From: Desulfonatronovibrionaceae bacterium
GTDB taxonomy: Bacteria; Desulfobacterota; Desulfovibrionia; Desulfovibrionales; Desulfonatronovibrionaceae
Assembly (NCBI GenBank): GCA_046539845.1
Contig: JBKHGE010000001.1
Span: forward strand, 1-64,000
DNA: 64,000 nt
Reading direction: 5' to 3'
Below the pieces are notes generated by a model. The model saw only the letters and a list, made by a program, of their open reading frames with translations, ran no database searches and was not told the origin of the DNA. This document shows positions 8,070-52,419 of the stretch, piece by piece (positions within the stretch are counted from its first letter, which is position 1; the number at the start of each line of letters is the position of its first letter). The translations under genes were made by a program, and so were the position numbers.

Positions 8070-9380
8070 ATGGCTGAAGCAGCTGTCAAACTTGGAGCAG
8101 AGCCGAAAACCACCTTCATGGACAAGGTAAGAGATCTTTTGCCCGAAGAGGGGCATTTGAATCTCTGCCTTACATGCGGGGCCTGCTCTGCCGGATGTCC
8201 TGCCTCCGGCATTGAGGACATGGATCCCAGAAAATTCCTGCGCATGGCCGCCCTGGGGCTGGACGAAGAAGTCACCTCCACCGGCTGGGTCTGGTGTTGT
8301 ACCCAATGCAGGAGGTGTATCTATGCCTGTCCCATGAGCATTGACATCCCCAAGCTGGTTTACCAGGCCCGCGCTGAATGGCCGCGGGAGGAAAGGCCAA
8401 AGGGTATACTCGGCTCCTGCGACATGGCCCTGAAGACCGAAGGCAACAGCGCCATGGGCGCATCCTCTGAGGACTTCAAGTTCGTTGTCGAAGACGTCCT
8501 GGAAGAGATCAAGGAAGAGCAGCCGAACATGGACAAGCTGGTGGCCCCGATAGACAAGAAAGGGGCCAAGTACTTTTTGAACCAGAACTCCCGCGAACCG
8601 GTCACCGAAGCGGAAGAAATGGTCCCGCTGTGGAAGATTTTGAACACGGTCGGAGCGGACTGGACTTACGGCACTCTTGGTTGGGGAGGGGAGAACTACT
8701 GCATGTTCCTTTCCGACACCGAAGGCTGGGAGAAAATAGTCCGCAACAAGGTCAAGGCCGCAGAAGACCTGGGGGTGGAAGTCTTTCTCAATACCGAGTG
8801 AGGGCACGAATTTTATGCGCTCCTGGAAGGATTGCGCAAGTTCAAGATCGAGCCCAAGTTCAGACTGGAAAGCATCATCACCCATTACGCCCGCTGGATC
8901 CGGGAAGGCCGCCTGCCGGTGGACCCGTCCTGGAACAAAGATATAGGGGCCAAATTCACGGTTCAGGATCCCTGCCAACTGGTCCGCAAAGGCCTGGGGG
9001 ATCCCGTGGCCGAGGACCTCAGGTTCGTGGTCAAATCCGTGGTCGGTGAAGAGAACTTCGTGGATATGTACCCGAACAAATCCAACAATTTCTGCTGCGG
9101 CGGGGGCGGAGGGTTCCTCCAGGCCACCGGATATGAAGAACAGCGCAGAAAATTCGGGAAGATAAAGTTCGACCAGATCAAGGAAACCGGGGCCAATTAC
9201 TGCATAACCCCGTGTCATAATTGCCACTCTCAGGTTCTTGATCTAAACGAGTACTACAACGGTGGATACTACACAGTCCATCTGTGGAGCCTTATCTGCC
9301 TCTCCCTGGGCATTCTGGGCGAACACGAACGCGAATACCTGGGCCCGGAGCTGCAGGAAGTGGCTGTTTACGGCGCCTAG
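8070..9380 (+). CDS. Selenocysteine-containing HdrD/GlpC-like (2x[4Fe-4S] plus CCG-domain) Fe-S oxidoreductase, 436 aa, Sec at UGA 8799-8801
   Basis: ORFs 8070-8801 and 8832-9380 are in frame; junction reads NTE-UGA-GHEF at the conserved ECGH Cys; CxxCxxCxxxCP twice, QDPC, CCGGGGG, PCHNC; SD AAGGAGG; hairpin downstream of UGA. Confidence 0.88.
8816..8838 (+). promoter_or_regulatory. Putative bacterial SECIS element
   Basis: UGCGC-UCC[UGGAA]GGA-UU-GCGCA hairpin, loop 22 nt after UGA. Confidence 0.75.
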
Positions 9381-9399
9381 ACACGAACTCAAAATTGGG

Positions 9400-9434
9400 A
9401 AAAAAACCCGGCTGCACTGCAGCCGGGTTTTTTT
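9400..9434. terminator. Intrinsic terminator
   Basis: AAAAAAACCCGGCTGCA-C-TGCAGCCGGGTTTTTTT perfect inverted repeat with T tract. Confidence 0.85.
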
Positions 9435-9509
9435 GATTCTTGCCTCTTGTGTATGGACTTAAAAAACTTATGGGCCTATTATAGTCCCCAAAAATACAAG
9501 GAGGTGGAC

Positions 9510-10004
9510 ATGGAGCTTACTGACGTGGCTTGGACTGAAAAATGGGAGGAGCTGGAAAAGGCGCTACACGAGAACTCCGGGCTCAATGCCTGCGTATACA
9601 ATAATCAAGGGGCGCGTATCACCAAATATACGGCCTGGGGGAACAAAATCTGCCCCATTGTCAAGGGCCACCCGCAGGGAGTGGCCAATATCTGTGCGGT
9701 AGCCAATCAGAATATGACCAGCCGAGCCCGTGAGGCCGGGGAACCAATAGTGGGCGAATGTGATGCCGGGTTTGTCAAATTCGCAGTCCCGATCATAAAA
9801 GACAAACAATTCCTGGGGACGGTTGGCGGCTGCGGCCACCTCTACCCCCAAGGAGAAGTGGAGACCTTTTACATCCACAAATCCATCGGCCATGCCCTTG
9901 AGGAACTGGACCGGTTGGCCGCAGAAATACCCCGGACCAGCCCGGAGGAAGTCCAAAAGCAGATCAGGTTCGTCCAAGGGCAGCTCGCCCGGATATTGGA
10001 ATAG
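9510..10004 (+). CDS. Stand-alone PocR ligand-binding domain protein
   Basis: Three spaced Cys (ICPIVK, ICAVAN, ECDAG) and FAVPI...GTVGGCG; SD AGGAGG before ATG 9510. Confidence 0.8.
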   Translation: MELTDVAWTEKWEELEKALHENSGLNACVYNNQGARITKYTAWGNKICPIVKGHPQGVANICAVANQNMTSRAREAGEPIVGECDAGFVKFAVPIIKDKQFLGTVGGCGHLYPQGEVETFYIHKSIGHALEELDRLAAEIPRTSPEEVQKQIRFVQGQLARILE

Positions 10005-10012
10005 GCTGCCGT

Positions 10013-10840
10013 ATGTGCTGGCTAATCTGGGCGATAGTTGCCGCCCTCTTTCTGCTGACCGCGGCCAGCTATGTCCTTTACTGGTACGAAAACGGCAACC
10101 AAGCGGACTCGACCCGGACCTCCCTTTTCCAAGTCCTTTCCGCCGGCCTGGACTCGGTCCTGGGTGTGGCTTTTCTGGCCGCGGTATATCCACTGGGCCG
10201 GCTGAAGAGGATTAAGCGTGCGAGCGTCCCAGACAGAAACGGGCCGGTAATAGTCTGTGTGCACGGACTGTTCCACAACCCGAGCGCTTGGATCATCTTC
10301 CGCATCCGCCTGCGCCGGGCCGGGTTTGGTAACTGCTACTGCCCGGCGTACAAAAGCTTTACCAACGATATCTCCGGGGCCCTGCAGGAGTTGGAGGAAC
10401 AACTCGCTGCGATCCGGGGAAAGCACCCCGAGCAGGAACTCATCCTTGTCGGGCACAGCCTGGGCGGGCTTTTGGCCTTTTTTTCCGTCCCCAACAACCG
10501 GAGCAGACTGATAATTACCATGGGCACGCCGTTTAAGGGAAGCAAACTGGCCGTATTCGGCATATCCCGCCTGGCCAAGTCCCTGCGGCCGCAGAGCCGA
10601 GAGCTTCAAGCCTTTCTTTCAAAAGCAGAAAACACTGCTCATCCACCGGGGCTGGCCCTGTACACGACAACGGATAACATGGTCCTGCCCGGAAAATCGC
10701 TACTGGCCGCGCCCGAGGGATGGAGACTGGTCCAAACCCGTCGGGCCATGTCCCACGTAGGCATGCTCTGGAGCGGGGAAGTAGCCGGGCGGGCCATAGA
10801 GGAGATCCAAAAAACGGTTGAAAAAAACGGGACCGGGTGA
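10013..10840 (+). CDS. Membrane-anchored alpha/beta hydrolase (lipase/esterase-like)
   Basis: VHGLFHN, GHSLGG nucleophile elbow, TMGTPFKGS, DNMV, SHVGML. Confidence 0.85.
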   Translation: MCWLIWAIVAALFLLTAASYVLYWYENGNQADSTRTSLFQVLSAGLDSVLGVAFLAAVYPLGRLKRIKRASVPDRNGPVIVCVHGLFHNPSAWIIFRIRLRRAGFGNCYCPAYKSFTNDISGALQELEEQLAAIRGKHPEQELILVGHSLGGLLAFFSVPNNRSRLIITMGTPFKGSKLAVFGISRLAKSLRPQSRELQAFLSKAENTAHPPGLALYTTTDNMVLPGKSLLAAPEGWRLVQTRRAMSHVGMLWSGEVAGRAIEEIQKTVEKNGTG

Positions 10841-10870
10841 GCATTCCGCCCGCCCGGTCCCGTTTTTTTC
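10820..10870. terminator. Bidirectional intrinsic terminator between convergent genes
   Basis: GAAAAAAACGGGACCGGG ... CCCGGTCCCGTTTTTTTC inverted repeat. Confidence 0.8.
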
Positions 10871-10883
10871 GGCCCGATCCAAA

Positions 10884-11057
10884 CTATTTTTCGTGCTTAT
10901 GCTCGTGAGGAATCACCTCTCCAGTCTCCGGGTCGTGTTCGTGATCGTGCTCATGGGGGTGAGAGTGGACCACATCCCCATGGCTGTGCTCGTGATCGTG
11001 AACATACTGTGCATACTTTGAATCGGGATTGTGTCCGCACCCGCAATCATTACACAT
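10884..11057 (-). CDS. 57-aa MCxxCGC / His-rich small protein (putative Ni/Co-binding), absent from ORF track
   Basis: Translates MCNDCGCGHNPDSKYAQYVHDHEHSHGDVVHSHPHEHDHEHDPETGEVIPHEHKHEK; SD GGAGGTG 7 nt upstream; promoter and terminator flank it. Confidence 0.85.
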   Translation of the reverse strand: MCNDCGCGHNPDSKYAQYVHDHEHSHGDVVHSHPHEHDHEHDPETGEVIPHEHKHEK

Positions 11058-11094
11058 AACCTAACACCTCCGTTTAAGATTTACCGTGCATAAT

Positions 11095-11123
11095 ATTATG
11101 AACTTTTTATACCCCGGCGTCAA
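11095..11123 (-). promoter_or_regulatory. Sigma70-like promoter for the His-rich gene, with -10 inside palindrome CATAATATTATG (11089-11100)
   Basis: TTGACG-N17-CATAAT on minus strand. Confidence 0.6.
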
Positions 11124-11155
11124 GCGGCTTGTGAAATACAGACTGCCCCTGCAGG

Positions 11156-11653
11156 CTATTTTATGGCATCACTTACGGCAGCACTCATGGAGGCCGGGAA
11201 AGAGACTATGAGCACCCGCTTGGCTGCCAGGACAAAATCGGTTGTCCAGGGGCATTGCTGGATCAAGGTCATAAGCCCGCCGACAACAAGCAAAGAGAAG
11301 CCATAGGTACCCACTACCCTGAGAATATAGCTATGGACATGGCCTTTAAAGGCCGAGCGATAAAAATTGAAATAGGTAAAAAAAGCGATAAAAAGGATGG
11401 ACAGAGAGCTTAAGGCCAAAACATTGGCCAAAGGCAGGTTTTCTCCAAGATTCCAGGTCTCCTCGGTAAAGGCCACGGGCACAGCCAGAATGGAGGCCCC
11501 GACAATGACCTGCATCATGTCCCGGGGCCGGAACTCGACCATAAGCGGTTTGACCGCATAATCCAGTACCCGGCCTGCGCTGTCCACAATAGGGATCACC
11601 CGGTGCAGATACCCGCCGATCCTTCTTATGCTTGTCTTTGACTTGTTTTCCAC
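11156..11653 (-). CDS. DUF2391-like integral membrane protein
   Basis: QVIVGASILAVPVAFTEETW and SFPASMSAAV motifs; several TM segments. Confidence 0.7.
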   Translation of the reverse strand: MENKSKTSIRRIGGYLHRVIPIVDSAGRVLDYAVKPLMVEFRPRDMMQVIVGASILAVPVAFTEETWNLGENLPLANVLALSSLSILFIAFFTYFNFYRSAFKGHVHSYILRVVGTYGFSLLVVGGLMTLIQQCPWTTDFVLAAKRVLIVSFPASMSAAVSDAIK

Positions 11654-11680
11654 TTTTCCCTCTTGCTTTGTTGCGCCTGG

Positions 11681-12823
11681 TCAGTCTGAATCCAAAACCA
11701 CCCTGTTTTTGCCGGCTTTCTTGGCCTTGAGCAGGGCCTGGTCCGCCCGATCGATCAAGGTATCCACCGTGCATTGCTCCGGACCTTTCTCCGCCACCCC
11801 AATACTGACCGTGACCCACTCCCCGGGAGAAAGCCCGCCCAGGCAAGTCCCGGCAATGGTCTGTCTTAGACGCTCGGCCACGCCTGCGGCCTGTTTGCAG
11901 TCTGCACCCGGGAGCAGGGCCACAAACTCCTCCCCGCCATATCGGGCCAGGGTATCGAATTCACGCAGGGTGGAGCGGCAGGCATCAGCCAAGTCCTTAA
12001 GTACCACATCCCCGACACTGTGTCCGTAACGATCATTTACAGACTTGAAGTCGTCTATATCCAGGACCAATGCGGAGATGGGCAGGTTGAACCTTTCGGA
12101 ACGCCGCAGTTCCTTTTCGGCCACATCATAAAAACTGCGGCGATTGTAAACCTGGGTCAGATAGTCGGTCTTGGCCAAGTACGTGGCCCGGCCCAATGCC
12201 TCCTCCAGCTGCTGCGATTTCCTTTCCAGCTCCGCTCTGGCGCTCTTGAGCTTCCGGATATTCTCTATAGAGATAAGGGCCTGGGTCAAAAGCGGGCCTA
12301 GTCGGAAAAGCAGGCTGGCGTGCATGTAGTCAATAAGCCCATGCTCCCGGCTGACGCAGACCAGTGCGGCTCTGAAGCGGCCATAGCGGAAAGGAGCGTG
12401 TGCCGCGGTGGCGTACTTATCCCTAAGTTCGAACTTGTCCTCCCATTCCGCGGGCTGATTCAGGTCATGGACAATTATCGGCCGCCCCCGGGTAAACAAA
12501 CGCTCGAACATGGCCGAAGGCCGCCAAATGGTCCCCTGAAACTCCGGAAGTGTGGAGGAAAAAACCTCAAAACAGCCGCTGTCTGAAAAAAGCAGGACAA
12601 AGGAACCGTCCAGGGACTCGGATTCGTTCAGGGCAAGGAGTATGTTCAAAAGCCCGGATTCTGCAGTCTCCGCGGTGGTCAGGCCCCGCAGGCCCTGCAG
12701 GAGGAGCTCGGTATGTCTGCGGGATTGTCTTTCCCGGCTGCGCATCCTTTCCCGGTCCAGAGCGATTTCATACAATTCCTCGTTTGCCAGGCTGGCCACC
12801 TGCTCTTCGATATAAGAAGTCAT
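11681..12823 (-). CDS. Diguanylate cyclase (GAF-like plus GGDEF domain)
   Basis: TDYLTQVYNRR, DIDDFKSVNDRYGH, RYGGEEF; I-site REFD; ATG 12823 with SD GGAGG. Confidence 0.88.
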   Translation of the reverse strand: MTSYIEEQVASLANEELYEIALDRERMRSRERQSRRHTELLLQGLRGLTTAETAESGLLNILLALNESESLDGSFVLLFSDSGCFEVFSSTLPEFQGTIWRPSAMFERLFTRGRPIIVHDLNQPAEWEDKFELRDKYATAAHAPFRYGRFRAALVCVSREHGLIDYMHASLLFRLGPLLTQALISIENIRKLKSARAELERKSQQLEEALGRATYLAKTDYLTQVYNRRSFYDVAEKELRRSERFNLPISALVLDIDDFKSVNDRYGHSVGDVVLKDLADACRSTLREFDTLARYGGEEFVALLPGADCKQAAGVAERLRQTIAGTCLGGLSPGEWVTVSIGVAEKGPEQCTVDTLIDRADQALLKAKKAGKNRVVLDSD

Positions 12824-12840
12824 TGCATGCCTCCTGCGGC

Positions 12841-14049
12841 CTAAATGGCCGACGGCCGGTTGCTGAAAAGGATCACCGAGACCATAAGGTTGCCGTGATA
12901 ATTGGCCCCCTTGGTCAAAGAGCCCTGCTCCCCAAAGGTAAATATGGTCAGATAGGGCACATCCCCGAGCAGAGCATTCAGCTGGCGCTTGACTTCGTTT
13001 AGGTCCTTGCGCACCGCCAGCATGGACCCGGCGCAAAAGTCAATCAGCGCCCCCTGAATCTGCTCCGGCTGGTAGTCGTTGTTGGCCAGGACGCTCTCCA
13101 CCACCCGGGTGGGGCGGCTGACAAGGCTCTTGCGGCTCCCGCTCATGAGGGTGATCCGGTCGTTGTCCTTTATATCTGTAAACAAGGATATGCTGTGGTC
13201 CGGGAATACCTTTTCCGGATGGGACAAAAGTTAGAGGGGCACCTTGCCTAGTTGGTGTTTAAACCGGGCCAAAGGGTACCAGCTCGTCAACCCAAGTACG
13301 TCTCCGCCCCGGGGAAGCACCGAAGAAATAGCCCCCTCGGTCCAGTCATTATACACCAATGCCGCCGGGCGGCCGTCAATCTCCTTGAGAATGCGGCCCT
13401 CGGTTTCCGTGGCCACTCCGAAATGGGAAGTGGGGGAATAACCGCTGTGAAAGGAAAAACCCGGCTCCTGGGAAGGGAAAAAGGAGGTGACGGCCACCCC
13501 TTCTGTGGAGGCGGATCCGTTTCCTATTACCGACCAGTTACCGGCAACCGCATCATCAGCAGCACTACCGCCCAGAACAGGGATATTCGGACCCAGGACC
13601 GATTCAATGCCGGCCAGGATCTTTTCTTCCCGGCCGGGAGTGGAAGATATCCAGACAAAAAGCGGGGACTCCCCGGGTCGACCGGCGTTGCTCAGGCTTT
13701 CCCGCACGGCTTTGGCTGCGGCCTGCTCCGGATCATTTCCAAACTCGCATATACTTGTCCCAAAATCCCCGTCCGGGTCATGGAGGGCTAACACCCCTAG
13801 AATTCCCGGAGTGCCGCTCACAAAACCGGAATTAACCAGCACTCCCTGACAAGTGCTCCCGCCGTGCACGGCCGCGTTCGGAGCGAACTCGGCCATGGAC
13901 CGGGCCAGATGGGTCGGGTCAAGGGCTTCTGTGTAATAGGCAAACACCATGTCCGGAGTCCCGGGCATTTCCGCGCTCAACTGGGAAAAAACTTCTTTTG
14001 CCGCCTCCCGGGCATCGGTTTCCCGGGTCCAAAAAACAGATATACGCAT
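12841..14049 (-). pseudogene. FIST-domain sensor (FIST_N plus FIST_C) interrupted by in-frame TAA at 13231-13233
   Basis: HGGSTC, GGSAAD, EIDGRPA upstream; VPL-TAA-LLSHP continues in frame to FCAG and TFGEQG...HGNL. Confidence 0.8.
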
Positions 14050-14215
14050 AAGCAAACTCCTGCAGACATGTCCCGGGCCCTGCGCCCGCATGTAAAATGT
14101 ATTCAACCCGCAAAAGTATATTAACCCAAATCCCGGCTTGCGGCAAACCCGTTCGGAATCGCACACCTTTGGGCTCCACTTGACAAGCCGGACACAGACA
14201 AATACCTGCCGGGCA

Positions 14216-15319
14216 ATGAACAGCAAACACGCCCCGGCACCGCCCCCGGATTTTGATCTCCAAAGCTACCACTTTGAACTCCCGCAGGAAAATATCGCCC
14301 AGACGCCTGCAGCAGCCAGATCTTCCTCCCGGCTACTGGTCCTGGACAGGGCTTCGGGCGCTATCACCCACTCCTCTTTTTCCCGGCTCGATTCCTTTCT
14401 GCCTAAGGAGTGCTTGATCGTGGCCAATAACACCCGTGTTCTGCCGGCCAGGCTGGAAGGCAAAAAGTCCTCCGGCGGAAAGGTGGAGTTTCTGCTTTTG
14501 ACTCCGCTACCGCTCCTCAAAACAAAAACCCACGGCAACGGCCAAAGGAGCTGCACCGCCCTGGGATTGCTCCGGGCTTCCCGGGCTCCGTCGGTAGGGG
14601 ATAGGATCGACCTGGAAGGCGAAATCTCCCTTGCCGTCTTGGAAAAACACCAGTTCGGACAGTATTTGGTCCGCCTGGAGTGGTCCGGGGAGCTGGAAAA
14701 AATCTTTTTCAGCCGCGGGCATATGCCCCTGCCGCCCTACATCCGCCGCCCCGACGGGCCCGAGGACCGGCAAAGATATCAGACCGCTTTCTGCAGCAGG
14801 CAGAAGACCGGGTCCGTGGCCGCGCCAACCGCAGGCTTGCACTTTACCCCGGAAATCAGACAAAGACTTCTGACCTCGGGGAGGAAATGGGCGGAAATAA
14901 CTTTGTACGTCGGGTACGGTACTTTCAGCCCCATCCGCTGCCGGGATATCCGCAGGCACCAAATGCACAGCGAATACGCGGAAATCCCGGCCCGGACCGC
15001 GAAGATGATCAACCGGGCCAAAGCCCGGGGCGAAAGCGTGCTCTGCGTGGGCACAACCACTGTTCGGGCCCTGGAAGGCGCATTCCAACTAACCGGGGAC
15101 ATCCGACCGTACACCGGATGGACGGATATTTTTATTACCCCGGAATCCCAGTTCTTTGTCACCGACCACATGCTGACCAATTTTCACCTCCCCCAGTCCT
15201 CACTTATTGTCATGGTCTCCGCCCTGGCCGGAAGAGAGCGCATCCTGGCCGCATACAAAGAGGCCGTGCAAAAGAACTACCGCTTCTTCTCCTACGGGGA
15301 CTCCATGCTCATCCTGTAG
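14216..15319 (+). CDS. queA: SAM:tRNA ribosyltransferase-isomerase
   Basis: ELPQENIAQ, PLPPYI, GSVAAPTAGLHF, TNFHLPQS, YRFFSYGDSM. Confidence 0.96.
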   Translation: MNSKHAPAPPPDFDLQSYHFELPQENIAQTPAAARSSSRLLVLDRASGAITHSSFSRLDSFLPKECLIVANNTRVLPARLEGKKSSGGKVEFLLLTPLPLLKTKTHGNGQRSCTALGLLRASRAPSVGDRIDLEGEISLAVLEKHQFGQYLVRLEWSGELEKIFFSRGHMPLPPYIRRPDGPEDRQRYQTAFCSRQKTGSVAAPTAGLHFTPEIRQRLLTSGRKWAEITLYVGYGTFSPIRCRDIRRHQMHSEYAEIPARTAKMINRAKARGESVLCVGTTTVRALEGAFQLTGDIRPYTGWTDIFITPESQFFVTDHMLTNFHLPQSSLIVMVSALAGRERILAAYKEAVQKNYRFFSYGDSMLIL

Positions 15320-15536
15320 ACCGAGCGGCCCTGGCGCCAGACCAAGAAATACCCCCCTGAAAAGTATGAAAATCCTCCCGGATGCACCCCGGGGACAAAA
15401 CCTCTTTTATCCGTCAGGGTTTTATGTTAAGTGAAGTTTCCTTTTTTATCCATTCAGAATGGGTGCTTGCGTCTTCACGGGATGCAAAAAAGGACCATCA
15501 CCAGCAAATACACGCGGCCTGCGGCCAGGAGGTAAC

Positions 15537-15779
15537 ATGTCCAGAGTGGTCTTTAAGGAAGACAGGTGCAAGGGGTGTCTGCTGTGCACCCTGGTCTGCC
15601 CGGTGGGAATAATTGTTCCGGCCGAGCGTTTCAACAAGCAGGGCTACAAGGTAGTGGAAGTCCCGGCGGAGCAGATGGAAGAATGCAAAGGGTGTGCATT
15701 CTGCGCCCAAATATGCCCGGACACGGCCATAGAGGTGTTCAAGTCCGCTCAGGAAAAGGAGACCGCAGATGTCAGCTAA
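15537..15779 (+). CDS. 2-oxoacid:ferredoxin oxidoreductase delta subunit (2x[4Fe-4S])
   Basis: CKGCLLCTLVCP and CKGCAFCAQICP; SD AGGAGG. Confidence 0.9.
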   Translation: MSRVVFKEDRCKGCLLCTLVCPVGIIVPAERFNKQGYKVVEVPAEQMEECKGCAFCAQICPDTAIEVFKSAQEKETADVS

Positions 15780-16830: not shown

Positions 16831-16832
16831 TC

Positions 16833-18143: not shown

Positions 18144-18155
18144 TCCCTCTAAGCC

Positions 18156-18977: not shown

Positions 18978-18983
18978 AGACAA

Positions 18984-21701: not shown

Positions 21702-21717
21702 GCAGCCACTGTTCTCT

Positions 21718-21987: not shown

Positions 21988-22040
21988 ATCATTTCCTTTT
22001 GTTTACTTTTGATCCGCTTTTGGCCGAAGCCGCCAGTTTA

Positions 22041-23725: not shown

Positions 23726-23733
23726 ATTCAACC

Positions 23734-38844: not shown

Positions 38845-38850
38845 CCTGCT

Positions 38851-40031: not shown

Positions 40032-40079
40032 TTTCTACTCATTAATATGGCCGTCCGCGCAGGAATGCAGGGCAAACAT

Positions 40080-41135: not shown

Positions 41136-41141
41136 TGCTTT

Positions 41142-41579: not shown

Positions 41580-41699
41580 GACATCCTCCTTTTAAGATAA
41601 TTAGTATATTAAGCCTCATGCCAAACTAATGTCAAATAAACAAGGGATTTTATAAAAAAATTATTTTTTCTTTAATCTGGACAATAAAAGGAGGTCAAA

Positions 41700-41900
41700 A
41701 TGCCTATTTACGAATACCAGTGTACGCAGTGCGGACACGAATTCGAAGAACTGATCCAACCCGGGGACAACCAACCGCAATGCCCGTGTTGCGGGGCTGA
41801 AAAAACTGTCAAAAAAATGTCGACCTGCGCTCTGAAAAACAAAGGAAGCAGAGAATCCCCTGCCTGCGCCCCGAGTTCCGGCTTTTCCTGAGCAGGATGA
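41700..41900 (+). CDS. FmdB-family zinc-ribbon protein, probably with C-terminal Sec (…[11 protein letters not shown]); ends at 41891 if not recoded
   Basis: [24 protein letters not shown] 41889-41891, then GCA GGA TGA and a SECIS-like hairpin. Confidence 0.75.
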
Positions 41901-41929
41901 TTTGCGGCCCTGGAGGGGCCGCAAATCAT
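41897..41929 (+). promoter_or_regulatory. Hairpin: putative SECIS (may also act as terminator for convergent fusA)
   Basis: ATGATTTGCGGCCC[TGGAG]GGGCCGCAAATCAT, 14-bp stem, loop 19 nt after UGA. Confidence 0.65.
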
Positions 41930-41939
41930 TCCCTGGCGG

Positions 41940-43994
41940 TCAAAAATCAGCCGCGTCAAAGCGGTCGAATTTCATAATCAGGGTGGCCCTACCCTGAGTG
42001 GCTGAGCGCAGCTCAGTGGTAAACCCGAACATATTCTTGAGCGGGGTAAAGGCCTGGATGACCTTTTCTCCGCTCACGCGCTCGAACATATTGTCCACCC
42101 GCGCGCCCTTGCTGCCTAAAAGCCCCATGCATTCGCCTACAAATTCCTCCGGGGAGTGGATCTCCACCCACATAATGGGCTCCAAAAGCACTGGACCGGC
42201 CTCTTTTAGGGCCGCTTTCAACGCAGTGATGGCTGCCATGCGGTAACCCACCTCTGATCCGCCCTCGCTCACCGCAATCAACTCCTGGACAGCGACCGCC
42301 AGATCGTGAACTGGATAGCCCTTGAGCACCCCGGCCTGCAGGCCGTCCTGTATACCGCTGAAAACAGAGTCTTGTATTTTGCGGCTGAATCCCTCGGTAT
42401 CGCAGGCAAAGTAAATATTGACTCCGGAAGATCTGGGCCTTGGTTCCACCTGCAGGCGGACCGCCCCAGCATGGAATTTTTCTCCCAGTTCGCGGGCAAA
42501 GGATCTCTCCGCGGCAGCCGTTTCCCGGATGGTCTCCTGATATACAACCTGGGGATTACCGGACCGGAAATTAACCTCAAAATCGCGGCGGATGCGGTTG
42601 GTCACCACCTCCAGATGCAACTCCCCCATCCCGGAGAGGATAATTTGTTCGGTATCTTTGTTTCTTTCCACGCTCAGGGTAGGGTCTTCCTGGATCAGTC
42701 GATCCAAGGCCTCCAGGAGCTTGTCCTCCTGCTCACTGTTCTGCGGCTCCAAAGCCTGGGATATGACCGGCTTATACCGGCTTATCCGCTCCAGGATAAT
42801 CTGGTCTTGGTATGAACACAGGGTATCCCCGGTACTGGTATCTTTCAGACCGGCAACAGCAACTATCTGACCGGCAACAGCCAGATCGGTCTTTTCCTTG
42901 CGCTCGGCATGCAGAAAAAATAATCTGGATACCCGCTGTTTTAACCCTTGGGTGGCATTGTAAATTTCCTGTCCCGGTTCGATCTCTCCGGCATAGATTC
43001 GAAGCAAAACCATTTTCCGTCCGGTCTCCATGGTTATCTTGAAGGCCAGGCAGACCAGCGGATCCTTTCGGGAATGCCCCACTTCTTTTTTTGTCTTGGT
43101 CTCGGGGTCGATACCGGATATTTGGGGGACATCAGAGGGGGAGGGCAAATAAGCGCAGATTGCGTCCATAACCGGCTGCACTCCGGTATTTTTCAAGGCG
43201 GAGCAGGCCAGAACTGGCACGCACTCCAACCGGAGGCAGGCCTTCCTAAACTCGGATCTGATCATCTCCGGGCCGATCTCCTTGCCTTCGAGATATGACT
43301 CCATCAACTCGTCACTGAAGTCGGCCAAGCCTTCTATGACAATATTTCTCCATTGCAGGACCAACTCCTCTTCCTGACTCTCCAGCCCCTGGACTTCATA
43401 GCGTGCCCCGTATTCCGCCTGATCATAGATGTATTTTTTGCCTTCCAAAACGTCAGCAACCGCGTAAAAATCCTCCCCCTGGCCCAGGGGGACCTGCACC
43501 GGCAGGGGCACTATACTCAACTTTTCCCGCATGGACCTAATAGCCCCCTCAAAATCGGCTCCCACCCGGTCCATTTTATTCACAATTGCGATCTTGGGGA
43601 TATGGTACTTGACCGACTGTTTCCATACCGTCTCGCTCTGAGGCTCAACCCCACCCACGGCACAAAACACACCCACGGCCCCGTCCAGGACACGCAGGGC
43701 CCGGTCCACCTCAATGGTAAAATCCACGTGTCCCGGGGTGTCGATAATATTTACGGTGTGTCCCCTCCAATCACAGGTGGTACAGGCCGAGCCGATGGTA
43801 ATCCCCCTTTCCTGCTCGTCCGGGAGATAGTCCATGGTGGCTGTGCCTTCATGCACCTCACCCAGCCTGTGGATCCGCCGCGAATAGTAGAGCATCCTTT
43901 CGGTAAGCGTGGTCTTTCCGGCATCGATATGAGCTATGACCCCTATATTGCGGATCTTTTGCAGATAATCTGCCTTTAAAGAGGATCGATCCAT
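41940..43994 (-). CDS. fusA: Elongation factor G paralog
   Basis: [36 protein letters not shown]; not next to rpsL/rpsG/tuf. Confidence 0.9.
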   Translation of the reverse strand: MDRSSLKADYLQKIRNIGVIAHIDAGKTTLTERMLYYSRRIHRLGEVHEGTATMDYLPDEQERGITIGSACTTCDWRGHTVNIIDTPGHVDFTIEVDRALRVLDGAVGVFCAVGGVEPQSETVWKQSVKYHIPKIAIVNKMDRVGADFEGAIRSMREKLSIVPLPVQVPLGQGEDFYAVADVLEGKKYIYDQAEYGARYEVQGLESQEEELVLQWRNIVIEGLADFSDELMESYLEGKEIGPEMIRSEFRKACLRLECVPVLACSALKNTGVQPVMDAICAYLPSPSDVPQISGIDPETKTKKEVGHSRKDPLVCLAFKITMETGRKMVLLRIYAGEIEPGQEIYNATQGLKQRVSRLFFLHAERKEKTDLAVAGQIVAVAGLKDTSTGDTLCSYQDQIILERISRYKPVISQALEPQNSEQEDKLLEALDRLIQEDPTLSVERNKDTEQIILSGMGELHLEVVTNRIRRDFEVNFRSGNPQVVYQETIRETAAAERSFARELGEKFHAGAVRLQVEPRPRSSGVNIYFACDTEGFSRKIQDSVFSGIQDGLQAGVLKGYPVHDLAVAVQELIAVSEGGSEVGYRMAAITALKAALKEAGPVLLEPIMWVEIHSPEEFVGECMGLLGSKGARVDNMFERVSGEKVIQAFTPLKNMFGFTTELRSATQGRATLIMKFDRFDAADF

Positions 43995-44821: not shown

Positions 44822-44844
44822 AGCCTCTGCCCCCGCCTTTTAGT

Positions 44845-46386
44845 TTAAAAATAGCCCTGTGCTTGCCGGTCCAGACCCCGGTAGTTTATGGCCTCGGAGA
44901 GGTGGGCGGCTTGGATGTCCTTTTCCCCGGCCAGATCAGCAATAGTCCTGGATATGCGCATGATCCGGGTATGGGCCCGGGCGGAAAGCCCCAGGCTTTT
45001 GACCGCCTTTTCCAAAAAAGCGTGTTCCCTGTCCCCTATCCGGCAGAATTCGGAAAGCCACTTCCCGGAGAGTTCACTATTGGTCATAAGCGGGAGGTCC
45101 TTATAGCGTTCGGTCTGGATACTGCGGGCCTGGTTCACACTGTCCCTGATCTCTTTAGAACTTTTGGCCCCCATCTCCTGGCGCAGGTCCTTGTACGGCA
45201 CAGCAGGCACTTCAATATGCAGATCTATCCGGTCCAGAAGGGGGCCGGACAGCCGGGCCCGGTAGCGCTGGATCTGGGTGGGCGTACAGGTGCAGGGATG
45301 GGTCTCGCTCCCCAAATAGCCGCAGGGACAGGGGTTCATGGCCGCCACCAGGACAAAAGAAGCCGGATAGGAAAGAGAAGTTGCGGCCCGGGATATGGTC
45401 ACCGTCCCGTCTTCAAGCGGCTGACGCAGGACTTCCAGGACGTGCTTTTTAAATTCCGGCAGCTCGTCCAGAAAAAGCACACCCCGGTGGGCCAGAGATA
45501 CTTCTCCGGGCCTGGGGTAGTGTCCGCCGCCGATGAGCCCGGCATCTGAGATGGTGTGATGCGGGGAGCGGAACGGCCGGGCCACTAGCATGGGTGTGCT
45601 CGGGGCAAGCATACCAGAGACGCTGTATATCTTGGTCACCTCCAGGGCCTCATCAAAATTGAGCGGTGGCAGAACAGTAGGCATGCGTTTGGCAAGCATG
45701 GTCTTGCCGCTTCCCGGCGGACCAAGAAAAAGCAAATTGTGATTCCCGGCTGAGGCAATTTCAACTGCCCGCTTAGCGTGGTCTTGCCCCTTTACTTCGC
45801 TGAAGTCCTCAAAGAAATCTTCCCGTGAATCCCAGAGGGCGTTTAGATCAAGGTCAACCGGCGGGATACGGACCTCGCCCTTGAAAAACCGGATGGCCTG
45901 GGCCAGATTGGAGAGACTGATGATTGCCGGGCCGCGGACAACCGCTGCCTCGGTGCTATTTTCCTCGGGCAGGGCCAGACTTAAATTCCCATTGTCTCTG
46001 GCGCATACGGCCATGGGCAGGGCGCCGTTGACCGGTTTCAACTTCCCGGTCAAAGACAACTCCCCGGCGACAATAAAACCGGATAGGGCCGCGGGGTCGA
46101 ACTCTTTGCAGGCAGCCAAAAGCCCCAGGGCCAGGGGCAGGTCGTAGGCGCTTCCCTCCTTGCGCACGTCCGCCGGGGCCAAATTAATGGTGATCCGGGC
46201 CGGGGGCAGTTTGAAACCGTTGTTTTTGAGTGCGGAAAACACACGTTCCTTGCTCTCCCGGACCGCTCCCTCAGGCAGACCGACCATGGTAAAGGCCGGC
46301 ATGCCAGAACGGGCAAAATCGACCTCGATGTCCACACGGAATGCGTCTATACCCAGCAATGCGGCGGTGCTTACCCGGGAAACCAT
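44845..46386 (-). CDS. comM: YifB/ComM Mg-chelatase-like AAA+ ATPase
   Basis: INLAPAD..KEG..YDLP, GPPGSGKT, RSPHH, LDELPEF, AMNPCPCG. Confidence 0.93.
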   Translation of the reverse strand: MVSRVSTAALLGIDAFRVDIEVDFARSGMPAFTMVGLPEGAVRESKERVFSALKNNGFKLPPARITINLAPADVRKEGSAYDLPLALGLLAACKEFDPAALSGFIVAGELSLTGKLKPVNGALPMAVCARDNGNLSLALPEENSTEAAVVRGPAIISLSNLAQAIRFFKGEVRIPPVDLDLNALWDSREDFFEDFSEVKGQDHAKRAVEIASAGNHNLLFLGPPGSGKTMLAKRMPTVLPPLNFDEALEVTKIYSVSGMLAPSTPMLVARPFRSPHHTISDAGLIGGGHYPRPGEVSLAHRGVLFLDELPEFKKHVLEVLRQPLEDGTVTISRAATSLSYPASFVLVAAMNPCPCGYLGSETHPCTCTPTQIQRYRARLSGPLLDRIDLHIEVPAVPYKDLRQEMGAKSSKEIRDSVNQARSIQTERYKDLPLMTNSELSGKWLSEFCRIGDREHAFLEKAVKSLGLSARAHTRIMRISRTIADLAGEKDIQAAHLSEAINYRGLDRQAQGYF

Positions 46387-46392
46387 ATCCTC

Positions 46393-46992
46393 TTACTGCA
46401 CTGTGTCTCCGATCCGGGACCATCGTATATCATCAAATCCACGCCAGGACCAGTAGATCACCCACGAACGCCCCAGGATCTTGTTTCTGTCCACACATCC
46501 CCAGAACCGGGAATCATATGATTCGTCCCGATTGTCCCCCATAACGAAATATTTGCCCTCCGGGACCGTGACCGGATCCATATTGTCCCTATGGGGGAGG
46601 ATATGCGGGTCGGTATGCTGCACATACGGCTCATTTAACTTCTTGCCGTTCCTATATACCTGTTTTTCCTTTATTTCAATAGTATCCCCGGGGAGGCCAA
46701 TTATTCGCTTGATAAAGTCCTTAGACGGATCTTCTGGGAACTCAAAGACGACTATGTCCTGAAACTCAGGCTCTCCGAACCTGACTATAAACATGTCCGT
46801 AAACGGGATCCTGAGCCCGTAGCTGAACTTGTTCACCAGCAGGTGATCGCCGATCTTCAGGGTGGAAAGCATGGATCCGGACGGGATCTTGAAGGCCTGA
46901 ACCACAAAGGAACGAATAAAAAAGGCCAGGACCAGGGCGATGATCAGGGCCTCACCGTAATCCTTGAGCACCTTGTGCCAGCGTGGGTTCAT
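46393..46992 (-). CDS. lepB: Signal peptidase I
   Basis: IPSGSM, FIKRIIGLPGD, GDNRDESYDSR. Confidence 0.95.
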   Translation of the reverse strand: MNPRWHKVLKDYGEALIIALVLAFFIRSFVVQAFKIPSGSMLSTLKIGDHLLVNKFSYGLRIPFTDMFIVRFGEPEFQDIVVFEFPEDPSKDFIKRIIGLPGDTIEIKEKQVYRNGKKLNEPYVQHTDPHILPHRDNMDPVTVPEGKYFVMGDNRDESYDSRFWGCVDRNKILGRSWVIYWSWRGFDDIRWSRIGDTVQ

Positions 46993-47165
46993 CTATGTTT
47001 ATCCTTGGCTAGAGGTTTGGCTCGTTTATTGGCAGATAAAGACCCCGGCTCCGGAGGCAAAAAGCTGTGGCTCCCTATCCCGGCCGGTAGCCCGGGGTAC
47101 GTTTTATCCTGACTGTCCGCCTTTGCTTCGTGATCTGTTAGACACGCCCGAAAAAAATCCCTAAT

Positions 47166-48971
47166 TCACTTGTCGTCGGTCTGCAAGGCAGCAAAAAACG
47201 CTTCCTGGGGGATATCAACACTGCCCATCTTTTTCATCCTCTTTTTCCCTTTTTTCTGCCTTTCCAAAAGCTTTCTCTTTCTGGTTATGTCCCCGCCGTA
47301 ACATTTGGCGGTGACATTCTTGCGCAAAGGAGGGACCCGCTCCCGAGCGACAATCTTCTGTCCGATCGAGGCCTGGATTACCACCTCGAACAACTGCCTG
47401 GGAATCAGATTTCTCAGCTTCTGGGCCAAACTCCGGCCCTTAAAATAAGCCTTATCCCTGTGCACAATCGCGGACATGGCATCGACCTGCTCGCCGTTTA
47501 TCAGGATGTCCAGTTTCACCAGATCCGACTCTCTGAACTCCAAAATCTCGTAGTCCAGAGAGGCAAAGCCCTTGGTCACGGATTTCAGCCGATCGAAAAA
47601 GTCGAACACTATCTCGGCGAACGGCAGCTCATAGGTTATGATCACCCGGGTGGAGGTCAGATACTGCATATCCTTTTGGATGCCACGCTTTTCTTCACAC
47701 AGACTGAGCACGTTGCCCACAAACTCGTTCGGCACGTGGATCTCCAGACGTACATAAGGTTCATACACTGCCTGGATCTCCCCGGGCTCGGGCAGCATGG
47801 ACGGATTATCTATCTCCAGGGTGTTGTTTTCCGTGGTGAGCACCTGATAAACCACGGTCGGGGCGGTGGCGACCAGATCCACCTGGAACTCCCGCTCCAG
47901 CCGTTCCTGGATGATCTCCATATGCAAGAGCCCCAGAAACCCGCACCTAAAACCAAAGCCCAAGGCCTGAGAGCTCTCAGCCTCAAAATACAAAGCCGAA
48001 TCATTGAGCTGGAGTTTCTCCAATGCCCCGCGCAAGGAGTCGAATTCAGCAGACTCAATGGGATACAGGCCACAGAAAACCATGGGCTTGGCCTTCTTGA
48101 AGTCCGGATAGGGATTGGGGGTAGGTTGGGCCGGATGGGTGATGGTGTCCCCGACCCGGGCGTCCTTTATTTCCTTCAGACCGGCGCAAAGGAAGCCCAC
48201 CTCGCCCGCCTGCAGGACCCGGACGTCTTTGGGCTCCGGCGCGAAAACCCCGAGCTTGGTGACTTCATATTTTTTTTTGTTCGAACACATCATGATCGGC
48301 TGACCCATCTCCAGGCTGCCATCCAGGATACGGAAAAGGACTACCACGCCCATATAAGGATCATACCAGGAGTCGAAAATAAGGGCCTTGAGCGGATCTT
48401 CGTCCCTGCCGCGGGGCGGAGGGATAAAACGGATCAGCTTCTCCATGAGTTCGGCAACGCCTTTCCCGGTCTTGGCGCTGACCAAAGTGATGTCCGAGCA
48501 ATCCAGACCTACCACCTCCTCTATCTCCTGGGCAATCTTCTCCGGTTCCGCGCTGGGCAGATCGATTTTGTTCAGTACCGGAAGGACCTCCAGATCATTG
48601 TCCAGAGCCAGGAACACGTTGGCCAGGGTCTGGGCCTCCACTCCCTGAGTGGCATCAATCACCAAAAGCGCCCCGTCACAGGCGGCCAGACTCCGGGACA
48701 CCTCATAAGAAAAATCCACATGCCCCGGCGTGTCTATCAGATTCAACAGGTATTCAGTCCCGTCCGCAGTCACATATGGCATGCGCACGGTCTGGGCCTT
48801 TATGGTAATACCCCTTTCCCTTTCCAGATCCATGCGGTCCAGATACTGGTCCTTTTTATCCCTGTCCTCGATAATCCCGGCCAGCTCCATTATCCGATCC
48901 GCAAGGGTTGACTTGCCGTGATCAATATGGGCTATTATACTGAAATTGCGAATTTTATACTTTCCGGGCAT
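47166..48971 (-). CDS. lepA: Elongation factor 4
   Basis: [28 protein letters not shown]. Confidence 0.97.
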
Positions 48972-48975
48972 ATAT

Positions 48976-49464
48976 TTATCTGGCCAATTCCTTGATTTTA
49001 TCCACGACTACAGGGATAGCGGCCTCAGCCTCCGGGCTGAGACTTTCATCCATCTGTTCCGGGATATACGCGGCCTGTATCGCGATAATCCTGACTTCGG
49101 AGCGGCTGGTCTCCTTGAGTTCTTTTAAGAGATTACTCGTCGGGAATTGGTGCATGGAAAAATCCCCGATGCGTTTGGTGTCCACTTGATCAACATCGAT
49201 TTCAAAGACCTCGCCCGGCTTGCGGTCGATTTTGCTGGTGGCATCCACGATTATGAGCAGTTCCGGCTGCTTCTCGCTTAGCAAGAGATCGAACAAAAGT
49301 GCCCGGATAGATGTGCCCGCGTCCAGTGCGGCAACATCGGACGGCAGATCCGGATCCTTGTTCAGGGTCTCCACGACGCGAGGGCCGAGGGCATCGTCCC
49401 CGAACAGGATATTGCCGCATCCGAACACCACCACCCTGGAAGCAAACATTCTGGACCAGTCCAT
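48976..49464 (-). CDS. Hydrogenase maturation endopeptidase
   Basis: [23 protein letters not shown]; downstream of large subunit gene. Confidence 0.9.
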
Positions 49465-49502
49465 AGTCTATAACCCGCGTTTGTCTCTGATTAAAATTAA
49501 TA

Positions 49503-49528
49503 GGGCCGCCACCTACAGGTGACGGCCC
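49503..49528 (-). terminator. Terminator-like hairpin after hydrogenase large subunit
   Basis: GGGCCGTCACCT-GT-AGGTGGCGGCCC followed by TATTAATTTT on minus strand. Confidence 0.55.
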
Positions 49529-49559
49529 CTTGTAAACCATTTGCAACCAGCTGTCTAAT

Positions 49560-51008
49560 CTAACTTCTCAGGGTATCCACTTTCGATCCCTTGGAATCAA
49601 AGACGTTTACTTCAACATTTACACCGCCGTCCAGGCGGTGTGTAGCACAGCTCATTCACGGGTCATAGGCGCGAATAGCCATCTCAATGCGGTTGAGCAT
49701 GCCCTGATCGTAACTGCCGTCCTTGATCAGTGCCTTGGCCGCCTGTTTGACCGACAGGTTCATGGGCGCGTTGTTGTGCGTGGTACCCACAATCAAATTA
49801 GCCATGGTCACCTGCCCCTTGTCGTCGGTCTTGTAGTGGTGCAGCAGGGTCCCGCGCGGGGCCTCGACACACCCGACACCCTCGCCCGCCTTGGGTTCGA
49901 TATTGGGATCCCGGATTTCCCGGTTGGTGATTTCCGGATCGTTCAGGAGCTCTTCCGCCCTTTCACAACACTGGACCAGCTCTATCAGGCGCGCCCAATG
50001 GTAAAGAAGGGTCAAATGCGAAGGCCGGCCGAATTCCTTGCGGAAGATATCCAGTTCTTCCTGGGCCAAGGGTGTGGCCATCTTGTCGCAGACATTGATC
50101 CGGGCCAGGCAATTGGAGCGATACACCCCGACCGGATCGTTCTCGTCCAGCTTCAGATCTCCCCATTTCTTGGCATAGGGGAACTTGAGATAACTCCACG
50201 GCTCGACATGCTCGCCTATGTAATTGGTGTATTCAGAGTACTTGAACTGATCAAAGTCCCCCTTCTGGTCCATAAGCCTGAGTTCGCCATCGTAGAGCTC
50301 CAAGGCGCCGTCTTCCGGCCGGACCGTTCCTATGTATCCGGAGGGGAAAACCCCCAGGATCTTGACCGCATCCAGGTACTTGGGGAAAACCTCTTCCCGG
50401 GCGAACTTGATGGTGAACACACAGAAGTCCTTGAGTTCCTGTATCCCCTCCAAAAGCTCCTTGCGCTCATCCTCGTTCATGGGCTTGGAAAACCCGCCCG
50501 GAACAGCGGCAATCGGGTGGATCACCTTTCCGGCGAATTTTTCCAGCATCATCTGCGCCTTATAGCGCATGTGCACAACCTTCTTGGCCAGGTCCGGGTT
50601 GGCCCCGACAATCCCGACCACGTTGCGCACGGAATAGTCCTCGTCCGGCCCGATCACAAAGTCCGGGGCGGCCAGGAAATAGAAATGCAATATCTTATCC
50701 GGGATATAGGACAGCATCTGACAGAGTTCGCGCAACTTCTTGCCGGTCGGGGGGAGATTTACCCCCAGGCATTCGTCCGCGGCCTTGTTCGAGGCCAAAT
50801 GATGCTGCCAGGGGCAGATACCGCAGATGCGGTTCACAATCCGCGGGACTTCCTCCACCGGCCGACCGACAACGAATTTCTCAAAACCCCGCAGGGAGAG
50901 CACATGCAGTTTGGCATCCTCCACATTCCCGGAATCGTTCAGGTGGATGGATACACTGGCATGCCCCTCGATGCGGGATACCGGTGCAATATTTAGCGTC
51001 TTACCCAT
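49560..51008 (-). CDS. mvhA: [NiFeSe] MvhA/VhuA-type (group 3c) hydrogenase large subunit, 482 aa, Sec at UGA 49656-49658
   Basis: RIEGH, L1 RICGIC; L2 reads AYDP-UGA-MSCATH, then 25-aa extension to TAG 49560-49562. Confidence 0.92.
49621..49641 (-). promoter_or_regulatory. Putative SECIS of mvhA
   Basis: ACACCGCC[UGGAC]GGCGGUGU, loop 22 nt after UGA. Confidence 0.8.
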
Positions 51009-51018
51009 TATTTTCCTC

Positions 51019-51948
51019 CTAACCTAGCTTTTTCAGCATGCCGTGTGCTCCGCAGAAACGAGCGAGATACCCGCGGCGATCGGGCATTCCCATCGGATCA
51101 AATCCAACCGAGGCCAAGGCGCCCATGTAGTCAACCAGGGGTTTGGCATCCTTGCGGATCGGACCGTAGCAGCCCCGGCACGGCATACGGGCCTGCAGGC
51201 AACGGGGGGGCTTGCCCTTTCCGCCGCACCCGGCCCTGGTTACCGGTCCAAGGCAGAGGAATCCCTGCTCCAGCAGGCAGCGCATCTCGTTTAACGGCTT
51301 ATCCGGATCATACTCCGGGGCCTCCAGCAGACGCTTTATATCCCCGGCGCCCTTTTTGCTTTCCCTGGCAGTTGGACACTCATCGCATACCGAACGCTCG
51401 GGCATGGCGAACTCGGTCTTGCCCTCCAAAAGGGCCAGGACCGCGGCCGCTATCCAGTCCGGATGCGGCGGGCATCCCGGGACATAGATATCCACATCCA
51501 CTATTTCGTCCAGTGCATAGCACTTATCCAGGAGGGGAGGGACCTCGTTCGGGGTGTCTCCGGCATCTGTAGTGGGAGAGTCCTTGTACACAAACTGAGT
51601 AAGCTCCTCGTTTCCGTACATATTGATAAGCGCCGGAATACCTCCGTTTGTGGCGCAGGTCCCCAGGGCGATAAGGAGCTGGCACTTCTTGCGCATTTCC
51701 TTGAGGACTTCCACGTGCTCTTCGTTGCGCACGCTGCCGGAAACAATCCCTACGACTGCTTCCGGAATACTCAGCTCTTTATCCTCGCCGGTCTGACCGA
51801 AGTACTTGTGGTCCATTATTACCGGTATATGTACGAAATCCAGGTTGTTAACCAATAAATCTACTAGTATGTCGCCAATATTGAGAATGGCTATCTCACA
51901 CCCGGAACAGGCGTTCAGCCACTCCTCGGCAACAGTCACTTTGCTCAT
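51019..51948 (-). CDS. mvhG: MvhG/VhuG-type hydrogenase small subunit
   Basis: LNACSGC, GTCATNGG, PGCPP, SVCDECP, CLLEQGFLCLGP, PCRGCYG. Confidence 0.92.
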   Translation of the reverse strand: MSKVTVAEEWLNACSGCEIAILNIGDILVDLLVNNLDFVHIPVIMDHKYFGQTGEDKELSIPEAVVGIVSGSVRNEEHVEVLKEMRKKCQLLIALGTCATNGGIPALINMYGNEELTQFVYKDSPTTDAGDTPNEVPPLLDKCYALDEIVDVDIYVPGCPPHPDWIAAAVLALLEGKTEFAMPERSVCDECPTARESKKGAGDIKRLLEAPEYDPDKPLNEMRCLLEQGFLCLGPVTRAGCGGKGKPPRCLQARMPCRGCYGPIRKDAKPLVDYMGALASVGFDPMGMPDRRGYLARFCGAHGMLKKLG

Positions 51949-51981
51949 ATTCACCTCCGTATACTAACAGCCGTAAGGTTG

Positions 51982-52419
51982 CTAGGCGTTCACTGCTTGG
52001 TCGCACTTGGGACGCATCGGATTTGGTCCCAGGGACTTGATCTTCTCCGTAAACTCAGTGACCACCTCCTGAAAGCGCGGAGCTTCCGCCGAGGAGACCC
52101 ACTCGATCCGGAATCTTTCCGGGTCAATGCCCATGTCTTCCAGAACGAGCTGTATGGCCTGGGCCCTAGCCTGTGCTTTGTAATTACCATCCAGGTAATG
52201 ACATTCGCCCAGGTGTCAGCCCATGACCATTACGCCATCCGCCCCTTTTTCCAGGGCCTCAACCACCAGATTGGGATGGACCATACCTGAGCACATGACC
52301 CTTATAGCACGCATATTCGGAGGATATTGCAGTCGGGAGACCCCGGCTAGGTCGGCTCCTGCATATGCGCACCAGTTGCACAGGAATCCGACAATTACAG
52401 GTTCATAATTTTCAGCCAT
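51982..52419 (-). CDS. mvhD: MvhD/VhuD [2Fe-2S] subunit, 145 aa, Sec at UGA 52216-52218
   Basis: FLCNWCAYAGAD, RVMCSG, ADGVMVMG-UGA-HLGECHYLDGN..ERFRIEWVSSAE..LGPNP to TAG 51982-51984. Confidence 0.92.
52183..52199 (-). promoter_or_regulatory. Putative SECIS of mvhD
   Basis: AUUACC[UGGAU]GGUAAU, loop 22 nt after UGA. Confidence 0.75.

Follow-up and report, generated by a model that had tools for sequence, protein, structure and literature searches.

A stretch of 64,000 nucleotides from a Desulfonatronovibrionaceae bacterium (Desulfobacterota; assembly GCA_046539845.1, contig JBKHGE010000001.1, positions 1 to 64,000), hereafter the window, carries three unrelated genes in which an in-frame UGA is followed at one and the same distance by a hairpin tipped with CC-UGGAN-GG, and in which that tip is translated as L-E-G or L-D-G. 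The question raised by this locus is whether an RNA signal has written the same tripeptide into unrelated selenoproteins. The original prediction, made from the sequence of the window, was that the tip is a lineage-specific SelB recognition element which forces L-[DE]-G on the proteins. Our analysis points to ordinary bacterial selenocysteine insertion sequence (SECIS) hairpins, which are probably read by a single canonical SelB and among which UGGAN would be one of several interchangeable loops. This reading rests on sequence, conservation, contrasts between selenocysteine (Sec) and cysteine (Cys) forms of the genes, covariation and trees.

Hairpins downstream of the in-frame UGAs

The first gene (8070..9380, plus strand) encodes an HdrD/HmcF-like Fe-S oxidoreductase with a CCG domain, a member of the "UGH" selenoprotein family with a putative Sec244 in E-U-G-H. 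Its UGA (8799..8801) is kept in 31 homologous loci and aligns with Cys (TGC/TGT) in eight homologues; the SECIS-like hairpin spans 8816..8838, and its loop, UGGAA (8824-8828), lies in the codons for L-E-G. The other two genes are found 40 kb away on the minus strand, in an hdrA-mvh cluster. The MvhA/VhuA-type [NiFeSe] hydrogenase large subunit (49560..51008; D-P-U-x-x-C-x-x-H) has its putative Sec codon at 49656..49658 and an 8-bp hairpin at 49621..49641 with the loop UGGAC (49629-49633), and MvhD/VhuD (FlpD, PF02662; 51982..52419; G-U-H) has its own at 52216..52218 and a 6-bp hairpin at 52183..52199 with the loop UGGAU (52189-52193), both tips coding for L-D-G. The strict motif, CCTGGANGG, stands at 8822-8830, 49627-49635 and 52187-52195 in these genes and at 41909-41917 behind the UGA of a fourth, of the FmdB family. 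The gaps between UGA and loop are 22 nt in the Fe-S gene, mvhA and mvhD and 19 nt in fmdB, and translation confirms the readings U-GHEFYAL-LEG, U-MSCATHR-LDG and U-HLGECHY-LDG, all as had been predicted. A fifth Sec gene of the window was overlooked: hdrA (52447..55497, minus strand), an HdrA-like flavoprotein gene with a putative Sec60 in C-A-M-U (UGA 55318..55320) and a SECIS-like hairpin at 55281..55295 whose loop, GGUCG (55286-55290), begins 27 nt after the UGA.

The strict motif follows none of 735 confident UGA stops but four of the nine Sec genes known at the time of the scan, a comparison that is post hoc because the motif was defined from the observed genes, and it stands at exactly the same offset at 54 of 185,662 in-frame coding positions. 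It is thus commoner after recoded UGAs than after true stops. As a means of finding further selenoproteins, for which it had been put forward, it is of little use: TGA-N(17-20)-CCTGGANGG matches the genome 17 times, and the four true matches are the window's own, with none new. A general scan for N-G-[G/U] hairpins of at least 5 bp recovered six of nine known genes together with three of 734 stops, while its G-C filter excluded the hairpins of the Fe-S gene, mvhD and dsrE. The relaxed string C-TGGAN-G at 25 nt matched hesB, selD and dsrE, and is the true loop only in hesB; the selD match forms the 3′ arm of the stem, and the dsrE match, which is not conserved, shares bases with the end of the GGUCU loop. 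Rfam gave no match anywhere in the window, and among sequencing runs just one RNA run came up, with a word share of 0.06.

The bacterial SECIS consensus, the bSECISearch model in the form given by PMC13188914 (Fig. 2A), describes a hairpin directly 3′ of the UGA whose loop of 3-9 nt has G at position 1 or 2 followed by G or U, N1-G-[G|U]-N-N2, with a pair between N1 and N2 and a spacing of 16-37 nt; it was applied with an upper stem of 4-16 bp and a minimum free energy of at most -7.5 kcal/mol. All five window hairpins conform to it, with spacings of 22, 22, 22, 19 and 27 nt, loops of U-G-G-A-N or G-G-U-C-G (the G being unchanged at all 31 Fe-S loci) and energies from -12.5 to -31.5 kcal/mol. 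The Fe-S hairpin is the weak one, with a fold z-score of -0.98 (MvhA -2.09, MvhD -3.63, FmdB -4.47); its stem is borderline since only three contiguous pairs, or four counting the U-A loop pair, precede a bulge. The stems had been described as closing on a pentaloop. The hairpins are real, but in UGGAA and UGGAG the first U is predicted to pair with the final base of the loop, which makes these two GGA triloops in the model. As judged from sequence, the four hairpins are SECIS-like and likely direct Sec insertion. The consensus, as drawn in that figure, names no favoured UGGAN form and no amino-acid consequence, and it differs from these data in that here N1 may pair with the fourth or the fifth loop base.

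In the E. coli loop, G22 pairs with C25 and U26 is flipped out. The fdhF SECIS requires G23 and U24, with a bulged U17 (PMC8659212). Compared with fdhF as described there, the present hairpins are likewise small with an essential loop G, and the GGUC... loops that hdrA, prx and dsrE have in this genome are similar to it, whereas UGGAN has G at the place of E. coli U24 and its key G lies about 4 nt farther from the UGA (27 versus 23, the U of UGA being 1).

One SelB and many loops

The genome encodes selA, selB, selD (which has a UGA of its own) and tRNA-Sec, with just one selB over the cut-off. A census, not proven complete, gave 12 candidate Sec genes with UGA-to-loop spacings of 17-27 nt, of which five use UGGAN and four the strict motif. 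Beside UGGAN the loops are GGUCG, GGGAC, GGUC, GGUCU(G), AGUCU, GGGA and GGGC. Directly upstream of mvhD, hdrA has its GGUCG loop in 23 of 23 family loci; selD has GGGAC at 19 nt, conserved in all 24 loci counted, out of 25 supplied; prxU has GGUC at 17 nt, and a dsrE-like gene GGUCU(G) at 21 nt in a weak hairpin. The loop of hesB is UGGAC at 25 nt. A TusA-like and a pilus accessory candidate, for which the hairpins alone were considered, show GGGA and GGGC, respectively. A single SelB would thus have to read at least six loops other than UGGAN. By sequence comparison this SelB is canonical: its C-terminal helix aligns with solved SelB structures, the RNA-binding winged helix shows no genus-specific change among 22 family rows, and the one difference in the neighbourhood of that helix, a conservative D/E exchange, is something the genus has in common with genera g5 and g6.

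Nor is UGGAN confined to the lineage, since in MvhA and MvhD it is fixed in many families of the phylum, and it occurs outside the phylum too. All 18 family loci of Sec-type MvhA read L-D-G, as do 28 of the 30 pattern matches obtained from 301 genomes of the phylum (of the two exceptions one is not MvhA and the other reads L-G-G), and Sec-type MvhD carries L[DE]G at 23 of 23 family loci. The all-genome scan found CCUGGANGG in 13 of 18 Sec MvhD among the matches listed, including Desulfosarcina, Desulfosudis and a Dehalococcoidales record, in all three of which UGGAA is found. A single genome (G166) holds MvhD copies with UGGAN, UGUAY and AGGAU loops together. A hand count of the 52 Sec MvhD forms among the 150 of 524 phylum matches listed gave L[DE]G 23 times, LYG eight, QSG four, QDG four, LKG two and I[AS]G 11 times. 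The 11 copies with I-A-G or I-S-G, mostly from family f20 (e.g. G085:C2:28692), are without a loop at 22 nt and must therefore use another hairpin.

At fixed orthologous positions we distinguished 27 gene-loop combinations, 24 of them with G at position 2. With two registers allowed, all 24 permit a pair of N1 with either N4 or N5 (shuffle mean 17.2, p 0.0002); for Watson-Crick pairs alone the shuffle mean is 14.7, and none of 10,000 shuffles was as high. This series of sequences suggests a loop in which G2 is fixed, position 3 is G or U, and N1 is complementary to N4 or N5.

The canonical SelB would bind such hairpins and Sec would then be inserted at the upstream UGA, loops of the type N1-G-[G/U]-N4-N5, for which pairing of N1 with N4 or N5 is predicted, being interchangeable. 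Where the loop starts 22 nt after the UGA on a CC/GG stem, the reading frame would make codon +8 C-N1-G and codon +10 GGN, so that the protein would have to read [L/Q/R/P]-x-G, with L-[DE]-G as the UGGAN solution. The rule permits 36 such tripeptides, and R-A-G, R-F-G, L-Y-G, Q-S-G and Q-D-G do occupy the same slot. To say that the element forces L-[DE]-G is therefore too strong.

Some other results of the census may be recorded here. The AGUCU loop belongs to a gene for a 44-residue membrane peptide (L577:315-446, minus strand; G000 C18:3514-3645) downstream of an enoyl-ACP reductase-like gene (fabI-like by sequence); it reads P-U-x5-C, has its hairpin at 18 nt and retains TGA in six of ten relatives searched, and an NCBIfam search with it gave no match. 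An ArsP-type permease fragment (L370:794-1419, plus strand; G000 C12), whose pieces adjoin an arsenate-reductase-like open reading frame, was not counted as a Sec gene; it was judged a broken gene because it is frameshifted and its TGA has no hairpin. The genome has a single molybdopterin oxidoreductase match, without internal UGA, and apparently retains the Sec trait in the absence of a Sec formate dehydrogenase.

The tripeptide at protein level

In the Fe-S protein the hairpin likely accompanied a real amino-acid exchange. Among the 31 Sec loci of its gene the slot reads RFG in 13, RAG in ten, LEG in four, and RVG, RSG, RYG and QLG in one each. LEG is restricted to this genus, its carriers forming a clade of four genomes with 100/100 support in an IQ-TREE phylogeny of 32 rows whose backbone is poorly resolved. 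The stem shows covariation: 95.4% of cells are paired against 87.9% in shuffles, none of 500 of which did as well. The loop pair in 25 distinct rows is G-C in 11, G-U in nine, U-A in three and A-U in one, with one row unpaired, and in the LEG genus it shifts from G-C or G-U to U-A. On this comparison of sequences, L-E-G is a single derived, non-conservative swap from R-[AF]-G that converged on the MvhA/MvhD tip; it would have taken place once, at the base of the genus, through a compensatory change of the loop pair from G-C to U-A.

For MvhD the imprint is partial. None of seven Cys-type family loci has L[DE]G (six read K[DE]G), and it is present in 6 of the 98 Cys-type phylum matches listed; among the all-genome matches listed it occurs in 13 of 18 Sec forms and 7 of 103 Cys forms. 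Because the Gly was part of the search pattern, a link to Sec exists for the Leu alone, and that Leu would have been gained ahead of an already common [DE]-G. One Cys-type mvhD (G033:C543:3021-3059) has the full ATTACC-UGGAG-GGTAAT hairpin; selA and selB were not found in this genome, which is 91% complete, and the gene is possibly a recent reversion.

For MvhA the imprint is unproven. Among Cys-type forms, L[DE]G is absent from all 11 family paralogues, and it turns up once in 25 matches from the phylum and 13 times in 116 from metagenomes. A FastTree phylogeny, made with the tail excluded, 74 of 84 located rows kept and a midpoint root, places the single full-length Cys-type protein with RLDG (G125) as sister to the whole set of 39 Sec rows, so that LDG may predate the SECIS; the stem would apparently have been built upon an RLDG that Cys-type relatives also carry. 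L[DE]G, expected to be lost from Cys orthologues, is in fact much rarer in Cys-type homologues, as the MvhD counts show, and Cys-type MvhA can keep RLDG. In G125:C82 (L554; mvhD match at 13477) the Cys-type mvhA and mvhD keep L-D-G and L-E-G with Leu as CTC, which means that the loop G is lost in both genes.

The feature linked to Sec is the RNA. Among carriers of L[DE]G, which come from related genomes, were in a few cases fetched twice and do not represent independent events, a stem of at least 5 bp is present in 50 of 50 Sec-type and one of 14 Cys-type MvhA loci and in 36 of 36 and none of seven MvhD loci, respectively. Leu is CTG at all of these Sec loci (50/50 and 36/36) but at nine of 14 and three of seven Cys loci, and in 45.5% of cases genome-wide. 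From the sequences, stems are clearly intact in the Sec-type genes and decayed in the Cys-type genes, which supports selection on them in the Sec-type genes alone. Group 4 [NiFeSe] hydrogenases behave likewise, the loop G being kept in Sec and lost in Cys forms with synonymous or amino-acid changes in the overlapping codons (PMC13582414). That account deals with one enzyme group and conservative replacements, in contrast to the same tripeptide in unrelated proteins, and one non-conservative swap, here.

The cluster that holds two of these genes is headed by hdrA and runs hdrA-mvhD-mvhG-mvhA-protease, with three Sec genes inside. MvhG/VhuG, the small subunit (51019..51954, minus strand), is without UGA, and the hydrogenase maturation protease (48976..49464, minus strand) would remove the MvhA tail bearing the LDG residues. 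A frhA-frhD-hdrA cluster in Deltaproteobacteria is mentioned in the review PMC13188914, whose Table 1 catalogues MvhA/VhuA, MvhD/VhuD, HdrA and the "UGH" Fe-S protein as selenoprotein families. Against the entries of that table, the window's MvhA, MvhD, HdrA and Fe-S protein have identical Sec motifs and show no substantial difference.

The FmdB copy, a possible lineage bias and what the loops may mean

The fourth UGGAN copy belongs to a zinc-ribbon gene of the FmdB family (41700..41900, plus strand; TIGR02605 score 55.6 bits, cut-off 31.3). The database protein, P0001, ends at 63 residues. We consider a protein of 66 residues ending S-G-F-S-U-A-G likely: the UGA at 41889..41891 would encode a near-C-terminal Sec, and the second UGA, at 41898-41900, is read as the stop because it lies only 10 nt before the loop. 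The hairpin has 16 bp (41895..41932; loop UGGAG, 41911-41915) and extends mostly past the stop. The family yielded 30 FmdB-family loci, among them nine complete short genes and 19 long paralogues (hand count); a tenth short gene is truncated by a contig end. Each of the nine short orthologues has the TGA, another stop one or two codons on and, at a distance of 17-21 nt, an N-G-[G/U] loop (UGGAG, GGGCU, CGGAG, CGGCG, GGUUC in four, GGUCC), with an alternative fold of the GGGCU gene giving CGUGU at 23 nt. Among the 19 long paralogues the stop is TGA in eight, TAA in seven and TAG in four, and their predicted folds have no such hairpin. The layout of the short genes makes Sec near the C-terminus likely, with a SECIS that is mostly non-coding, and the copy noticed in the original prediction is likely genuine. 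A third-subfamily gene (L169; G024:C12:157886-158071, minus strand) ends TGA-GGT-TAG followed by a hairpin with an AGGUA loop, and its match in G000 (C28) ends in TAG.

It is unlikely that the first UGA is an ordinary stop and the hairpin a terminator or 3′-end stabiliser between convergent genes. The stem is far longer than those of the coding SECIS elements and lies 8 nt from the stop, at 41940, of an EF-G-like gene on the minus strand (41940-43994), so it may also shape one 3′ end, and no Cys counterpart of the Sec position was found among the homologues compared. The hairpin has no U-tract, however, a terminator scan calls none on either strand, and the layout shared by the short orthologues and missing from the long paralogues is hard to square with a plain stop. 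An FmdB selenoprotein is recorded from GOS data as UxxU (PMC13188914, Table 1) and as CxxU (PMC2398784). The present protein has in common with those entries the TIGR02605 family and a predicted Sec, and it differs from them in that both CxxC motifs are all Cys, the UGA lies three residues from the C-terminus, and the SECIS is mostly past the stop. A literature search, with most subscription papers, supplements and BSepDB entries outside its range, gave no UGGAN class of SECIS, no L-[DE]-G imprint and no C-terminal FmdB Sec.

Several points weigh against ordinary SECIS elements with interchangeable loops. UGGAN is the commonest loop in the genome, with three copies at one spacing. The pairing rule, with its two registers, was framed after a partial view of the data, and three of the 27 loop types, all MvhD, violate it and must use another hairpin. 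The kinship of the Sec and Cys loci counts against the contrasts drawn from them. Loop position 3 is G in this genus in four of four Fe-S and four of four FmdB loci, and U in five of five FmdB genes from other genera, which hints at a lineage bias.

That hint can be extended to the view that SECIS loops are a genome-wide code which drifts by lineage, such that the SelB of this genus favours N-GGA-N; the preference would have exchanged the phylum-wide R-[AF]-G in the Fe-S protein for the L-E-G that MvhA and MvhD already had, and shifted the non-coding FmdB SECIS alike; to this we assign a low probability. A weaker effect, in which SelB reads many loops and selection in the genus tilted toward N-G-G-A-N and drove the Fe-S and FmdB swaps, seems to us quite unlikely. 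It would account for G3 in eight of eight genus loci of two variable genes, in a place where genera g2-g4 have GGUUC or GGUCC, but the genus's 44-residue peptide, hdrA, prx and dsrE genes retain U3, genus g6 and other families already have G3 in the Fe-S gene (GGGCC, common), only two events are involved, and the one SelB change is conservative and not peculiar to the genus. A lineage-specific element at 22 nt, as originally predicted, is very improbable. The absence of the motif from 735 stops, UGGAN in five of 12 candidates, the swap to UGGAA and LEG in the genus and the 23 of 23 against none of seven for MvhD speak for it; it is already largely refuted by the other loops in seven of 12 candidates, including hdrA beside mvhD, and further opposed by L-D-G in 28 of 30 phylum matches to Sec-type MvhA, UGGAA in Desulfosarcina, Desulfosudis and Dehalococcoidales, the mixed loops of G166 and an unchanged SelB. 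That L-[DE]-G is a protein-level coincidence free of RNA constraint is scarcely credible: the RLDG tails of the 13 Cys-type metagenome matches, the Cys-type sister of all Sec-type rows and the L-D-E kept in three of three Cys forms of HesB would suit it, but the uniform CTG, the decay of stems in Cys forms and the non-conservative Fe-S change with pairing kept refute it for MvhD and the Fe-S protein, leaving only the amino acids of MvhA.

With the hairpins read as known bacterial SECIS elements, the mechanism is not new. The orthologue series amounts to a mutational scan of the SelB-bound loop carried out by nature in an anaerobic lineage, and can sharpen SECIS predictors; for expression of these enzymes in E. 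coli, it shows which loops depart from the G23/U24 type. It gives one dated instance of a non-conservative amino-acid swap accompanied by an overlapping RNA signal, and it supports a near-C-terminal Sec in zinc-ribbon proteins of the short FmdB type, which gene callers truncate. If the code does drift by lineage, RNA-level selection would yield convergent tripeptides in unrelated enzymes, and the SelB preference of each lineage would show in the codon-free 3′ SECIS elements that belong to hidden C-terminal selenoproteins; if there is a lineage bias, SelB-SECIS co-evolution would be testable with few reporters.

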